The notes under the pieces were generated by a model. It worked only from the letters and a program-made list of their open reading frames with translations, was not told the origin of the DNA and did no database searches. DNA of 64,000 bases, taken from NCBI GenBank assembly GCA_963718895.1, contig CAVRAG010000007.1, forward strand, positions 1 to 64,000. The letters are read 5' to 3'. The translations under genes and the position numbers were made by a program. Positions 1 through 5,141 of the stretch are shown here, piece after piece. This DNA is from an uncultured Nitrososphaerota archaeon (GTDB lineage Archaea; Thermoproteota; Nitrososphaeria; Nitrososphaerales; Gagatemarchaeaceae). Within the stretch, counting starts at the first letter, position 1, and each line of letters begins with the position of its first letter.

Positions 1-304
1 ACGCCGCCCGTGCGGGCGCCATGTCTTCCTCGGTCAGCCCTGTCCCCGCCCTCCTGGTAGTGCATGAGCAGGCAGTATGCACGGTGGTGCCCCTTATCTG
101 TGTTGGGGACCCCCGTAAAGGTGGATCCGTTGGTTGTTTCATCGTTGTTCGATCTCACTTCCGCTCCGTGTTGAGGGCGGTGGACCGCAAGTCGGGGTCG
201 AGGTGGAGCGCCCGCAGCGCAGCGAGGACGAACGACCTCGATGCCGACGAGGATGCGCCGCATACTGGGTCGGCGCGGAGTGAGGGTAAAGATGTTGCGG
301 TTCA

Positions 305-560
305 AGTCATGTGGCGCCTCCGTGAGTGCTCAGGGCCGAAGAGATCAAAGCGTGGCGTGCCGGCGCCCAGCCTTATCTGGGTCCACGGACGAGGGTCCGG
401 CGACATGATGATGGATGGGGTGCCCGGCGTGCGGGCTGGTGATGGGTGCGGCCGCTCATTCTTTCCAGGGCGTCCACCCAGACAGCGGGTGGCGGCAGGG
501 GCCTTATAGGAGCTGACCGCGGGCATCAATTGATGTATGGGCAAGGCACGCACAGCTGGC
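305..560 (-). ncRNA. Candidate bridge/seek RNA of the IS1111-type element
   Basis: Non-coding region 3' of the transposase. Stem 510-520 pairs with 448-457, with an inner CCACCC/GGGTGG hairpin. Loop segments match the element ends and the insertion site (see findings). Ends are approximate. Confidence 0.7.
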
Positions 561-563
561 ATC

Positions 564-1613
564 TCAGGCGGCCTCCCGGACGGGTTGGGGTGGGCTTAGC
601 GCGGCATCACCGAGTTCACGCAGCGTGTGATAGCAGCGGCGCAAGATTTTGCGTTCGACCGCCAGGGTCGGGTTCTTGCCATTGTGGCCGTCGTGCTTGA
701 CCGCCAGCTGGTGGTAGTAGCCGTAATCGGGGGAACCGCGCCGAGCCGCGGACTTGGCCGCCTCGAAGGTGGCCCAACGCAGCTCGGGCGAGCCTTGCCG
801 GGACAGATGCCCGGGTGAGCGTTTGGCATCCGAGGAATACACGGTGACGTCCATGCCCGCGAAGCGCACCAGCTGATCAGAGCTGGAAAACCGGCGCGCG
901 TCACCGATCTCGGCCCAGATGATCGCCGCGCATAACCACCCGATGCCGTAGTGGCGGGCCTGCAGCGCCTGACAGCCCTGCTGGTGTCGGGCGAAGTTCA
1001 CCAATTGTGCTCGCAGCGGCACAATCTCGGCACCCAGCTCATCAATGCGCCGCAGCGCCGTGTCCACATACTGGCGTCCCACCCCCGACAACTCCGCACC
1101 GGCGAGTGCGTCGCGACCCGCCACCGACAGCAATGCGGTGACCGGCGGGCAGCCCTGATGAAACAACTGGGCGTGGATGCGCTGCTGCCAGGCGCGGCGC
1201 TGCTCCATCAGCGCGCAGTACAACCGGCCCAAGGTGCGAACCTCCACCACATGCGCCGGCGGGATCCACGACTCGGGGAACCGGCCCTCCACCAACAGCG
1301 TTCGCAAAAGCCGCGCATCGGCACGGTCGGTCTTGGCGCGCTTCTTGGGCCCCCGCAACCCCGCAATCTCGGCCGGATCCCCCAAATGCGCCACCACCCC
1401 CGCCATGGCCAGCTCCTCGACCACATACCGCCACCCCGTACAGCCCTCCAGCGCAAACTCCGCGTCCCCGCTCGCGCAGTGCTTGCCCAGCCAACCCCGC
1501 AGCGTCTTGCGTGTGGCCGGCCGGATCTCACCGGAGTGCACCAAGCCGTCGTCGTCCACGTAATCGAACGTGATCTGCTTCCGGTGCACGTCAAACCCGC
1601 CTACCATCGTCAT
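564..1613 (-). CDS. IS110-family transposase (DEDD bridge recombinase)
   Basis: MTMVGGFDVH..., ALEGCTG, KRAKTDRADA and a C-terminal YSSD...GHLSRQG motif. GGAGG RBS at 1623-1627 precedes ATG 1613. Confidence 0.95.
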   Translation of the reverse strand: MTMVGGFDVHRKQITFDYVDDDGLVHSGEIRPATRKTLRGWLGKHCASGDAEFALEGCTGWRYVVEELAMAGVVAHLGDPAEIAGLRGPKKRAKTDRADARLLRTLLVEGRFPESWIPPAHVVEVRTLGRLYCALMEQRRAWQQRIHAQLFHQGCPPVTALLSVAGRDALAGAELSGVGRQYVDTALRRIDELGAEIVPLRAQLVNFARHQQGCQALQARHYGIGWLCAAIIWAEIGDARRFSSSDQLVRFAGMDVTVYSSDAKRSPGHLSRQGSPELRWATFEAAKSAARRGSPDYGYYHQLAVKHDGHNGKNPTLAVERKILRRCYHTLRELGDAALSPPQPVREAA

Positions 1614-1799
1614 CAGTGGGACCTCCTCAAGCTCCCGAAAAATTTCTCTGACGCCCATATCAACGAGCGTCTGAGCTGAGGGGGTCCCCATCACATGTCA
1701 TCTTTTCCTTTATCTCTTCGTCATCTCTTCGTCGATGGTTTCATCCGCTATGACGATTGAGGCGACGTTCGATCGACATTTGGGCGCACAATGCAAACC

Positions 1800-2562
1800 A
1801 TGGGTCGCACATTCGAAGATCTGGTGGCCGAGGCCGATTCGGCATCCGTTGACGGCTGGGACTTCTCCTGGCTGGACGGCCGCGCCACCGAGGAACGACC
1901 GTCCTGGGGCTACCAGCGACTGATGAGCCAGCGGTTGGCGACCGCGTCGGCCGCCCTGCGACCTCGATACCGGCGGCGGGGAGGTGCTGGCGGGCGCCGC
2001 GACATTCCCGCCCACGATGGTCGCGACGGAATCGTGGCCGCCCAACGCGGCGCTGGCCACCAAACTCCTGCACCCGCGCGGCGTGGTGGTCGTCGCGACC
2101 CGCGACGAGGCGTGGCTGCCGTTCGCCGACGAGGCGTTCGACCTGGTGACCAGCCGTCACCCGATCGCCGTGCGGTGGGATGAGATCGCCCGGGTGCTGC
2201 GGCCGGGCGGCAGCTACTTCGCGCAGCAGATCGGACCCGCGACGATGTCGGAGCTGGTCGAGTACTTCATCGGACCGCAGCCCGAGAAATGGGCCGAGCT
2301 GTCACCCGGACACCCAGAGCGCGCAGGCACAAGCCGCCGGGCTGCAGATCGTCGACATGCGCATGGAGCGGCTGCGGGCGGAGTTCTTCGACATCGGCGC
2401 CGTCATCTACTTCCTGCGCAAGGTGATTTGGACGGTGCCGGACTTCACGGTGCGAGCGCTATCGCGAACGGCTGCGCGAACTGCACGAGCGCATCGAGGC
2501 CGACGGGCCCTTCGTCGCCCACTCCACGCGGCGTCCTCGTCGAGGCCCGCAAGCCGGGGTGA
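1800..2562 (+). CDS. Class I SAM-dependent methyltransferase (frameshifted in this sequence)
   Basis: MGRTFEDLV...[18 protein letters not shown] motif [12 protein letters not shown] and RVLRPGG are spread over ORFs 1791/1984/2180. Confidence 0.8.
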
Positions 2563-3494
2563 TCAGCCCCTCGTCGCGCAACACGTCCAGCGCGTGCTGC
2601 AGATCGGGCGGGTAGGGGCTGACGATCTCGATCCGCCTGCCGTCGGCCGGATGGGTGAACGCCAGCGAACGCGCATGCAGCCATTGGCGTTCCAGCCCAA
2701 GCTTTTTCGCCAGCTTCGGGTCGGCGCCGTAGGTCGAGGTCGCCGCAGCACGGGTGATGCAGCGCGGCGAAATGCACCCGGATCTGGTGGGTGCGGCCGG
2801 TTTCCAGGTGCACGTCGAGCAGGCTGGCGGCGACGAAGGCTTCGAGGGTGTCGTAGTGGGTGAGGCTGTGCCGGCCGTTCTGTGGTGACCGCGAATTTCC
2901 AGTCGTGGCCGCGGTGCCGCCCGATCGGCGCGTCGATGGTCCCGCTGGACGGATCCGGATGTCCCTGCACCAGCGCGTGATAGCGCTTGTCGACCGTGCG
3001 CTGCTTGAACGCCCGCTTGAGCACGGTGTAGGCGCGCTCGGAGAGCGCCACCACCATCACCCCGGAGGTGCCGACGTCGAGGCGATGCACGATGCCCTGC
3101 CGCTCGTGCACGCCGGAGGTGGTGATCCGGTAACCGGCAGCGGCCAGGCCGCCGAGCACCGTCGGCCCGGTCCAGCCCACCGACGCGTGCGCGGCCACCG
3201 CCGGCCGGCTTGTCGACCGCGACGATGTCGTCGTCGGAGTACAGGATCGTCATGCCCTCGATGTCGACGGGCGTGTTCTCCAGCGGCGCCGGCGCGCTCG
3301 GGCAGCCGCACCTGCAGCCACGCACCCGCGGTCAGGCGGTCGGATTTTCCCGCCTGCACCCCGTCCAGTTCGACGCCGCCGTCTTCGGCCAGCGCCGCCG
3401 CGGCGCTGCGCGACAGCCCCAGCAGCCGCGCCAGCCCGGCGTCGACGCGCATGCCCGCCAGGCCCTCCGGGACGGGCATCGAACGGTCGGTCAT
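2563..3494 (-). CDS. rluD: RluA/RluD-family 23S rRNA pseudouridine synthase (Rv1540-like; frameshifted)
   Basis: S4-like N-terminus ([16 protein letters not shown]), HRLDVGTSG catalytic motif, [12 protein letters not shown] and WLHA; immediately downstream of lspA. Confidence 0.9.
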
Positions 3495-4131
3495 CAGCTG
3501 CTCGGTCGCGCCTTCGGCCGGGCTCATCCGGCTGTCCGCTCGTGCGGCCGTCCGTGCGCCGGCCTACGGTGTCGAAGTCGAAGCCGAAGATCGACAGCAC
3601 GACCAGCAGGATCGCGCCGCCGACCACCGACGGGTCGGCGACGTTGAACACCGGCCACCAGCCGACCGACAAGAAGTCCACGACATGTCCGCGCAGCGGC
3701 CCGGGCGACCGGAAGAAGCGATCGACCAGGTTGCCCATGGCGCCGCCGAGGATCATCCCGAGGCCCGACCGCCCACCAGGGCGACACCAGCCGCCGGCCC
3801 ATCCAGAAGATGCCGACCACCACACCGCGTCGCGATCAGCGTCAGCATCCAGGTGTATCCGGTCGCCATCGAGAACGCCGCGCCCGAATTGCGCACCAAG
3901 GTCCAGGTCACCGTGTCGCCGATGATCGACACCGGCTGGCCGGGCGGCAGCAGTTTGACGGCGAGCACCTTGGTGACGATGTCCAGGGTCAGCACGACCG
4001 CCGCGACCGACAGCAGCAGGCGCAGCCGCCGCGGCGGCCTGCTGCGCGCGGCGTGCTGCGGCGTCCTCGGCGTCCCCAGCCTTGTCGGCCGCGGTCACCG
4101 GCTCGGCCGGTCCTGTTGGTTCCTCCGGCAC
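3494..4131 (-). CDS. lspA: Lipoprotein signal peptidase II (frameshifted)
   Basis: [23 protein letters not shown] and WPVFNVAD motifs; the TGA overlaps the rluD ATG. Confidence 0.93.
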
Positions 4132-4202
4132 TCCCCCATCATCCCCTAATGCGGATGCCGCCTCGCCGGAGCCCGCGCGGCGGCGTGCGCGATGATTCCA
4201 CT

Positions 4203-5141
4203 ATGGGCCGCCTGACCGTCATCGCCACCGGAGGGACGATATCGACCAGCACCGGCGCCGACGGGGTGCGCCGGCCCGCCTACAGCGGGGCGGATCTGCG
4301 GCACCCTTGGCCGGCGGCCTCGACGTCGATGTCGTCGACCTGCTGGCGCTCGACAGCTCGCAGCTGACCCCGGCCGACTGGGATCGGATCGGTGCTGCGG
4401 TGCGCGCCGCGGCCGATGGCGGCGCCGACGGTGTGGTCGTCACCCACGGCACCGACACCATGGAGGAGACGGCGCTGTGGCTGGACCTCACCCATGCGGG
4501 CGCACGTCCCGGTCGTGCTCACCGGCGCCATGCGCAGCGCCGACGCGCCCGACGCCGACGGTCCGGCCAATCTGCGCGACGCGCTGGCGGTGGCGGCCAG
4601 ACCCCGCCGCCCGCGACCTCGGGGTGCTGGTGTGCTTCGCCGGCCGGGTGTTGCAGCCGTTGGGCATGCACAAGGTGGCGACCGAGGACCTGAGCGGCTT
4701 CGCCGGCGAGCTGGTCGGCACGGTGAACGGCGGCGTGACGCTGACGCGGCACCAAGACGCGGCCGTACCTCGGCGAGCTCAGCGCCGCCGACGCGCCGCG
4801 GGTCGACATCGTCGCGGCATACCTCGGGAGTGACGCGGTGGCGCTGGACGCCTGCGTGGCCGCCGGCGCGCGAGCCGTCGTGCTGGAAGCGCTGGGTTCG
4901 GGCAACGCCGGAGACGCGGTGGTCGACGGGGTGCGCCGCCACTGCCGCGACGGGGTGGTGTCGCGGTGTCCACCCGGGTCCCCGGCGGGCGGGTCAGCGC
5001 CGGGTACGGCCCGGCCACGACATGGCGGCCGCCGGCGCGGTGATGGTGCCGAGGCTGCGGCCGCCGCAGGCCCGGGTGCTGGTGATGGCCGCGCTGGCCG
5101 CGGGGCTACCCGTCGCCGACGTCATCGACCGCTGGGGCTGA
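4203..5141 (+). CDS. ansA: L-asparaginase (frameshifted)
   Basis: [33 protein letters not shown] and LGSGN motifs; position between lspA and dinX as in mycobacteria. Confidence 0.92.

Follow-up and report, generated by a model that had tools for sequence, protein, structure and literature searches.

It has been reported by Siddiquee et al. (2024, PMC11187229) that ISEc11, ISPa11, ISKpn4 and ISPst6, all IS1111-group elements of the IS110 family, carry seekRNA systems, and IS1111 elements are described there as having a short left end, a long right end and a protein of ~330–350 amino acids; in the same account and in that of Durrant et al. (2024, PMC11208160), subterminal inverted repeats of 7–17 bp with terminal extensions serve as criteria of the group. 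Recombinases of the bridge or seekRNA type are being developed into programmable tools for genome engineering, and most of the work concerns a few proteobacterial elements. The stretch of DNA analysed here, called the window throughout, comprises 64,000 nucleotides (nt) of contig CAVRAG010000007.1 from an assembly of an uncultured Nitrososphaerota archaeon (GCA_963718895.1), and near its beginning lies an insertion sequence that is an ordinary yet well-preserved member of this recently understood kind. An earlier note, made from the sequence alone, had described it as an intact IS1111-type element of the IS110 family, with which the domains, the curated protein model, the catalytic residues and the ends agree. 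We give a probability of about 0.8 to the reading that this is an intact IS1111 element whose own downstream-region RNA steers the recombinase to its target.

The element resembles the four seekRNA elements, as they are described by Siddiquee et al., in its DEDD recombinase of 330–350 amino acids, in subterminal repeats with extensions and in a long downstream non-coding region; as in ISEc11, ISPa11 and ISKpn4, the top-strand match lies 5′ of the bottom-strand match and the two overlap in the target, and natural retargeting through RNA changes, reported there for ISEc11 versus ISXne4, would have its counterpart here. Unlike the elements in that description, the host group is Actinomycetota, and the target is Shine-Dalgarno-like rather than a repetitive extragenic palindromic (REP) sequence, attC or a transposon end; across the family one half-guide is constant, the other varying even among copies 95–99% alike; and an additional conserved hairpin lies 3′ of the predicted guide RNA. 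The supplementary tables of PMC11208160, as far as they were available, hold no published name for the element, with one unrelated row for Rhodococcus, Mycobacterium, ISRjo or ISMy.

The element, its ends and its core

The main parts of the element are as follows.

95..1701, minus strand: insertion sequence, delimited by homology with 54 full-length relatives, which stops at both junctions
564..1613, minus strand: recombinase gene, 349 amino acids, ATG at 1613, Shine-Dalgarno sequence GAGGAGG at 1628–1622
1680..1690, minus strand: left subterminal inverted repeat TGGGGACCCCC, read from the sequence
1701–1691, minus strand: left terminal extension ATGACATGTGA, 11 nt, preceding the left repeat
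104..114, minus strand: right subterminal inverted repeat GGGGGTCCCCA, read from the sequence
103–95, minus strand: right terminal extension ACACAGATA, 9 nt, following the right repeat
93..94 (right) and 1702–1703 (left), minus strand: AG core copies, placed from the relatives' empty sites and from variant lineages
1..92, minus strand: right target flank, GGGCACC and then GTG at 82–80, the start of the downstream gene

The inserted length is 1609 bp when one flanking AG copy (93–94 or 1702–1703) is included, the 11-bp subterminal repeats match perfectly, and the non-coding ends measure 88 nt at the left (1614–1701) and 469 nt at the right, downstream of the gene (95–563). The longest frame, 564–1694, carries PF01548 (E 1.8e-8) and PF02371 (E 9.4e-16), and the recombinase scores 154.1 bits against a cut-off of 140 with NCBIfam NF033542, an equivalog model named 'IS110 family RNA-guided transposase'. 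Among solved structures it matches only the transposases of ISCro4 (E 8e-8) and IS621 (E 3.4e-7, a weak protein match); D8, E56, D96 and D99 align on the GID, IEA and KTDxxDA motifs of both, and S261 aligns with the Ser of YESG in IS621, so that the catalytic D, E, D, D and Ser of IS621 all have counterparts. The residue after S261 is D, not G, and this S-S/D pattern around the Ser is retained in most relatives. The DEDD N-terminal domain, PF02371 with its Ser and the curated whole-protein model are those of the IS110 family. With regard to the IS1111 group, the subterminal repeats have extensions, the longer non-coding region lies downstream of a gene for a 349-amino-acid protein and matches both target strands with the top-strand match 5′ of the bottom-strand match, and a short core is common to donor junction and target, with no long duplication, at the relatives' sites rather than at the window's own. 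Because domains, NF033542, catalytic residues, repeats, end lengths and protein size all fit, 95–1701 is an intact IS1111-group element of the IS110 family with a DEDD/Ser recombinase.

Species-representative genomes were scanned with the recombinase, giving at least 215 relatives, and the best 80 (numbered, like further loci, with the prefix L below) were fetched; among their sources are soil Actinomycetota bins, Mycobacterium and Rhodococcus. The full element with both ends is present in 54 of these best 80, and 48 of the 54 are distinct. In nearly all of the 54, homology extends beyond the ends given in the earlier note, by 3 nt at the left and by 4 nt at the right, and the flanks read ..GAAAG at the left and AAGG.. 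at the right. Four relatives (L007, L009, L029 and L067) are inserted in one common multi-copy repeat, of which five genomes hold ten distinct uninterrupted copies (eleven rows were listed, two of them overlapping at one place) that read ..GATTGAAAGGGGG.., and occupied copies read ..GATTGAAAG/ATGACATG.. at the left and ..CAGATAAG/GGGG.. at the right, the slash marking the junction. At a second, independent site (L034, Mycobacterium), the uninterrupted orthologue reads ..CACGAAAGGACGACG.., is 72–78% alike and is one G short of the prediction. The difference between empty and occupied sites is the element plus an AAG overlap. Only two bases are common to donor and target, because the left flank of L045 and L047 is GAGAG and the junctions of L081 read AATAC/ and GATAAC/; the shared core is therefore AG, or CT when the opposite strand is read. 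For the window, the predicted empty site would then be ..AAAGGAAA(A)G/GGGCACC.., not ..GGAAAAGATAAGGGG.., and the predicted circle junction would join the right end ..CAGATA through AG to the left end ATGACATG... With the corrected ends and core, elements and empty sites can be called exactly in genomes of Mycobacterium and Rhodococcus and in those from soil.

The earlier note had proposed the same kind of element with a GAT core, an empty target AAGGAAAA-GAT-AAGGGG and a circle junction CAACACA-GAT-GACATG (that is, ..ACACAGATGACATG..), with CATGTC reading the right donor and CCTAT the right target. GAT does stand at both element ends (1702–1700 and 98–96), and CATGTC, which arises in 215/5000 mononucleotide shuffles of 300–563, is an exact complement of GACATG. 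Against this, GAT is absent from the uninterrupted targets, both the repeat copies and the L034 orthologue, and since 54 junctions share GAAAG at the left and AAGG at the right, every target would need to contain GAAAGATAAGG; CATGTC stays constant where the donor changes; and the CCTAT positions show no clear excess of matches to their own flanks. The GAT core thus is scarcely tenable: its presence at both ends is a coincidence, one copy being the core G with the AT of the left end and the other lying within the right end. The rebuilt circle junction and the empty target GGAAAAGATAAGGGG are contradicted by the AG core and by the relatives' uninterrupted sites, respectively, and for the empty target this is the outcome that the note itself had named as refuting. 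The note found the right RNA and loops, and it was the chance GAT that misplaced the core and led to a wrong empty site and to two wrong guides out of four. The search for empty sites in related genomes that it had proposed succeeded at the relatives' sites and failed at the window's own.

Probable guide segments of the downstream region

In the 469-nt region downstream of the gene, the following features are recognised, the guides being predicted.

351..557, minus strand: bridge/seekRNA-like region, in which an outer stem 550–538/369–356 encloses the target arm, a hairpin 436–422 and the donor loop
448..520, minus strand: target-loop arm with closing stem 520–510/457–448 and distal hairpin CCACCC/GGGUGG (492–474)
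497..503, minus strand: putative right-target guide GGCCCCU, matching its own flank across homologues and the most variable part of the RNA
460..466, minus strand: putative left-target guide G-GAAAG, in which 465–461 equal left target plus core and A460 equals the first base of the right donor
379–372 (371..379 with G371), minus strand: putative left-donor guide CAGAUAAG, equal to the left donor (element right end) plus core
407..411, minus strand: proposed right-donor guide UCAUC, complementary to core G and ATGA of the left end

RNAalifold on 35 homologues predicts 46 pairs in 351..557, among them the stem of 520–510 with 457–448 that had been described before; a target-reading loop at ~520–448 and a donor-reading loop at ~417–371 are likewise borne out. 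The words CATGTC (407–402), ACCCAGAT (382–375) and GGAAAGAAT (466–458) are present on the minus strand as the note had them; in the same 5000 mononucleotide shuffles of 300–563, ACACAGAT occurs at ≥7/8 in 275 and GGAAAAGAT at ≥7/9 in 439, and each such match, taken alone on a single sequence, is weak or near chance. For GGAAAGAAT and ACCCAGAT the placement holds, and the match itself improves with the AG core, to GAAAG and CAGAUAAG, respectively.

The evidence that carries the reading is covariation of the guides with the flanks, the check that the note had called for, which is strongly positive across homologues. The arm 520–448 is almost invariant except for one stretch directly 5′ of the distal hairpin, and there bases 502–497 (GCCCCU), and not the CCTAT stretch, are complementary to the core and right target AGGGGC (window 94..89), the whole guide GGCCCCU being set against AGGGGCA. 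For the comparison, the 14 nt ending at the U ahead of the distal hairpin were reverse-complemented and matched with the element's own right flank from the core A onward in 42 unique guide/site pairs (28 guides, 39 sites), leaving out L004 (rearranged right flank), L046 (anchor indel), L051 (no anchor) and copies with <12 nt of flank. The mean contiguous match is 5.24 in own pairs and 3.38 in shuffled pairs (standard deviation 0.16, maximum 4.19), and matches at positions 4–10 are 3.86 against 2.27; 0/20000 shuffles reach the own value in either measure, and restriction to one pair per guide gives the same outcome. By position, own-flank match at positions 4–7 is 0.90, 0.64, 0.79 and 0.67 compared with 0.49, 0.38, 0.33 and 0.33 in the all-against-all comparison, and the signal is gone by position 9, with own values of 0.14–0.36 at positions 9–12 and 0.18–0.32 for unrelated flanks. 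At least 6 contiguous complementary bases are found in half of the pairs (21/42), and eight more elements outside the set give contiguous matches of 9, 6, 8, 7, 7, 4, 4 and 6. Among eight copies ≥95% alike, nucleotide diversity is 0.22 in the 14-nt guide stretch, 0.017 in the remaining RNA region, 0.036 in the coding sequence and 0.10 in the spacer 255–350. In L007, which is nearly identical to the window copy, one guide base is C for G, and the target is AGGGGG instead of AGGGGC. The left-target guide tracks the left flank in four lineages, with GAGAG in L045/L047, AAAAG in L053/L055, CAAAG in L075/L076 and AAUAC in L081. These observations support 503–497, hypervariable over 7–8 nt among homologues, as the probable right-target guide and GAAAG (465–461) as the probable left-target guide.

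The donor loop appears to be built alike. CAGAUAAG is an exact 8-mer that occurs in 4/5000 shuffles, and its core base follows the change from AAG to AAC in L081, where the junction is GATAAC and the RNA GAUAAC. For the right donor, CAUGUC (407–402) was rejected: it does not covary with the donor, remaining the same where the donor is GAAATG (L014, L015, L018), GAGATG (L053, L055, L073) or GACATA (L062). The overlapping UCAUC (411–407) is more likely, though tentative; at its 5′ end stands U in the window family, C in L081 and G in L075/L076, the donor bases there being A, G and C, respectively, and its 3′ base tracks the core change in L081. The 5′ linker (~537–525) was also considered as a donor guide and rejected, since relatives whose donor ends are unchanged show variation and partial deletions in it. 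An invariant UGAUG (530–526) 5′ of the target arm can pair with CAUCA (413–409), both on the minus strand; it equals the donor's GATG and becomes CAUG in L081, where the donor is CATG, and it may mask the right-donor guide or make a further contact. Directly after each bottom-strand guide comes a base identical to the one that opens the right half of the other partner: A460 for the donor (A) and G371 for the target (G). In L053/L055, whose right targets begin with T, G371 is replaced by U. These two bases resemble the handshake guides of IS621, whose guide-adjacent bases match the other partner (Hiraizumi et al. 2024, PMC11208158).

As IS621 is presented in PMC11208160, it has two loops, each with a bottom-strand guide (left half plus core) and a top-strand guide (right half), and a dinucleotide core; the predicted arrangement here is the same, with core CT on the strand opposite the gene. 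Read on that strand, core and guide order would equal those of IS621, in agreement with the reversed order published for IS1111 elements. Compared with IS621 as described there, the RNA region lies in the right end and not the left; relative to the core, the element faces the other way; the subterminal repeats are long; the left-target (3+2) and right-donor (1+4) guides are shorter; and in the RNAalifold prediction the donor loop does not seem to form a stem-loop of its own but a junction from which the target arm also springs.

Most likely, then, the recombinase is steered by an RNA from the region downstream of the gene, with its predicted limits near 557 and 351. The 5′ segment of the target loop would pair with the top strand over the core AG and 5–6 bases to its right, and the 3′ segment, identical to the left three bases and the core, with the bottom strand; in the donor loop, UCAUC would pair with the left end and CAGAUAAG would read the right end, A460 and G371 acting in the manner of the IS621 handshake bases. 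The target so defined would be GAAAG/G plus ~4 lineage-set bases, corresponding to a Shine-Dalgarno core and part of one gene's spacer, and after insertion the element's last A together with the core would rebuild AAGG before the downstream gene.

Several observations weigh against this reading. With regard to structure, double changes occur in just 4/46 pairs of the conserved stems, the single-sequence fold has a z of −0.36 with 71/200 shuffles folding equally well, and Rfam 15 (4227 covariance models over 1–2400) gives no match in the RNA region, the sole hit being a chance-level CRISPR-DR29 inside the coding region (E 0.16, 22 bits versus a threshold of 39). With regard to the guides, the outermost left-guide base is mismatched in the window (flank GAAAAG, RNA GGAAAG) and also in L006, L043 and L067; a guide base of L036 mismatches the core, and the right junction of L006 reads ACG instead of AAG; the right-donor guide is drawn from three lineages, and UCAUC overlaps the CAUCA that RNAalifold pairs with the upstream UGAUG, a pairing retained in L081; the handshake reading depends on a single lineage with a change (L053/L055). 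Searches of genomes and metagenome contigs did not recover the empty site of the window itself: window 1–2600 matched in 0/60 genomes offered as relatives (G001–G060), an exact 35-nt flank word had no match among metagenome contigs, and three genomes with the orthologous left-flank gene (83–84% alike) have different DNA beyond that gene. Finally, 19/42 guide/site pairs match ≤4 bases, little beyond the common AGG.

This last point, like the near invariance of the target's left half and of the first three bases of its right half, is what would be seen if the protein of an IS1111-type element itself recognised a Shine-Dalgarno-like DNA motif and the RNA complementarity were incidental. Such recognition is very improbable, given that the variable target half tracks the variable RNA segment at a level that no shuffle attained, that left-flank variants are mirrored in the RNA, and that four IS1111 elements are, in the account of PMC11187229, experimentally RNA-guided.

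With regard to transcripts, 16 RNA-library runs contain 6–20% of the element's words. In contigs of four soil and permafrost metatranscriptomes, summed depth peaks at 181–240 in three and at 361–420 in one, and the latter includes a 76-nt contig identical to 363–438; such contigs reveal nothing of strand, ends or level and may include DNA, a further point against the RNA-guided reading, and they are taken as no more than presence. A consensus scan of 1–1800 gave 0 promoter-like and 0 terminator-like sites. By eye, joining of the ends at the AG core (119–93 with 1701–1696) brings together TTTACG, 17 nt and TAAGAT across the predicted circle junction, which might be a weak promoter-like arrangement (8/12) below the scan threshold; a GAT junction would make the second hexamer TGACAT. 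Promoter-like arrangements of this kind have been described for circular forms of IS110-family elements.

Target type, movement and state of the window copy

The target GAAAG/Gnnnn, with its GAAAGG, would seem similar to the Shine-Dalgarno core of actinobacteria, and AAGG to be kept for the downstream gene at the right junction. A start codon 5–21 nt downstream that opens ≥60 codons is found at 26/44 unique right flanks and at 267/980 random positions. In the window, the GTG at 82–80 comes after AAGGGGCACCACC, and the downstream gene has 126 codons at the orthologous locus L003. The mycobacterial IS110-family elements IS900, IS901 and IS902 insert in one orientation beside ribosome-binding sites, ahead of start codons, and belong to an IS110 group without long subterminal repeats. 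RNA guides directed to a Shine-Dalgarno core would offer a mechanistic reason why some mycobacterial and related IS110-family elements lie just before start codons. In a limited literature collection, no paper was found that joins actinobacterial IS110-family elements, ribosome-binding sites and bridge RNAs, nor one that contains both IS900 and bridge RNA.

Within the actinobacterial family, dozens of natural variants share their protein and donor ends but differ in the right-target guide, and several subfamilies with differing guides coexist within one genome. These variants form a ready data set on the number of guide bases needed and on mismatch tolerance, with long matches (≥6) and short ones (≤4) almost equally represented among the guide/site pairs.

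The window copy and L003 lie at an orthologous site and differ in 1/1606 bases, and identity between their flanks is 91% over 797 nt and 92% over 95 nt. Because the elements are nearly identical while the flanks are only 91–92% alike, it would fit if the element had recently reached this site in each of the two genomes under the direction of its guide. It is also conceivable that the anatomy is as set out above and that the window copy is resting or dead in its present genome. In keeping with this, the assembly (3.1 Mb) holds a single copy, the left flank has one A more than the guide expects, and the consensus scan found no promoter-like site. A resting or dead copy is nevertheless unlikely: the reading frame, the catalytic residues, both ends and the four guide segments are intact, the single difference from a copy whose flanks differ by 9% points to recent movement, and the assembly is only 80.5% complete. 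An RNA-guided element that may still be active remains preferred.

The orthologous flank of L003 reads GGAAAG, without the extra A of the window. Homopolymer differences between the two, such as this one (AAAAG versus AAAG at the left junction), suggest assembly errors of the frame-shift kind, and beside the left end of the element the plus-strand frames 1791–2183 and 1984–2562 overlap and resemble one frame-shifted gene. Genomes of 4.5–8.7 Mb reached through the element's relatives (G124–G128) carry the flanking gene at 83–91% identity, whereas none of the 60 offered as relatives matches window 1–2600; possibly the contig is foreign to its bin, or the genomes listed are only distant relatives.

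Among the relatives, the repeat hit by L007, L009, L029 and L067 (and seen also in L092–L105) ends ..GTGCGGGAAAACCGCACGCACGGATTGAAAGGGGGATGGGGAAACGG.. and has several copies per Mycobacterium genome; it may represent one end of a further mobile element. Six assemblies labelled as different Mycobacterium species (L032–L035, L070, L071) share one and the same element with identical flanks over ~6 kb, which could reflect a common plasmid or island, or cross-contamination. In L004 a second partial element (4010–4806) adjoins the right end, an internal piece of L056 (3108–3548) is inverted, and L159 (Rhodococcus jostii RHA1, which carries a copy 77% alike on pRHL2) has a duplication of ~100 nt in the non-coding region (1638–2016).

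The conserved hairpin

Within the right end, on the 3′ side of the predicted guide RNA, there is one further structure.

161..276, minus strand: long conserved hairpin, apical core ~236–202, covariance model score 110.4 bits

Its apical part of ~35 nt is almost invariant, and its stem varies in sequence while pairing is kept, with 10/19 predicted pairs changed on both sides across 21 instances; it has no match in Rfam 15. The hairpin is also present in elements whose recombinase is only 29–36% alike (8/19 rows), and on plasmids of Streptomyces, Nocardiopsis, Pseudonocardia and Streptosporangium it occurs with no IS110-type gene nearby. The covariance model finds it in 28/151 Actinomycetes genomes sampled (2/28 flagged unpublished). 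At 27 such class-wide loci, an IS110-type gene lies upstream on the same strand in 3 and on the other strand in 4, and none is detectable within 1.5 kb in 20, so that confinement of the hairpin to IS110-type elements was rejected. Its neighbours are mixed and resemble mobile DNA, including two integrases, an ISL3 transposase, a DnaB-like protein, DUF4192, HTH_31 and others. The hairpin may be a new non-coding motif of mobile DNA. A conserved RAGnnUG stands directly 5′ of the stem, and ahead of the hairpin TTTACC, 17 nt and CAGTAT form a conjectural promoter candidate, seen by eye and below the scan threshold.

As a separate module carried along by an IS110-family element, the hairpin has its closest precedent in the passenger small-RNA gene ssr9 of ISPpu9, which, according to Pares-Guillen et al. 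(2025, PMC12288879), is a structured RNA module downstream of the recombinase that is also found solitary elsewhere. Unlike ssr9 as described there, the 161–276 hairpin is unrelated in sequence and lies inside the ends of every copy examined. A wider reading, held only tentatively and on balance doubtful, would make the family a natural library of retargeted bridge RNAs, in which one half-guide is fixed on the Shine-Dalgarno core and the other 4–5 nt are hypervariable under diversifying selection, aiming each lineage at another gene's ribosome-binding site; the hairpin would then be an independent module of actinomycete mobile DNA, acting as RNA or single-stranded DNA, that rides along as ssr9 does or supplies outward expression or processing. 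Further instances of the hairpin are present in L086, L087, L089, L109–L115 and L160–L187, in plasmids as well as chromosomes.

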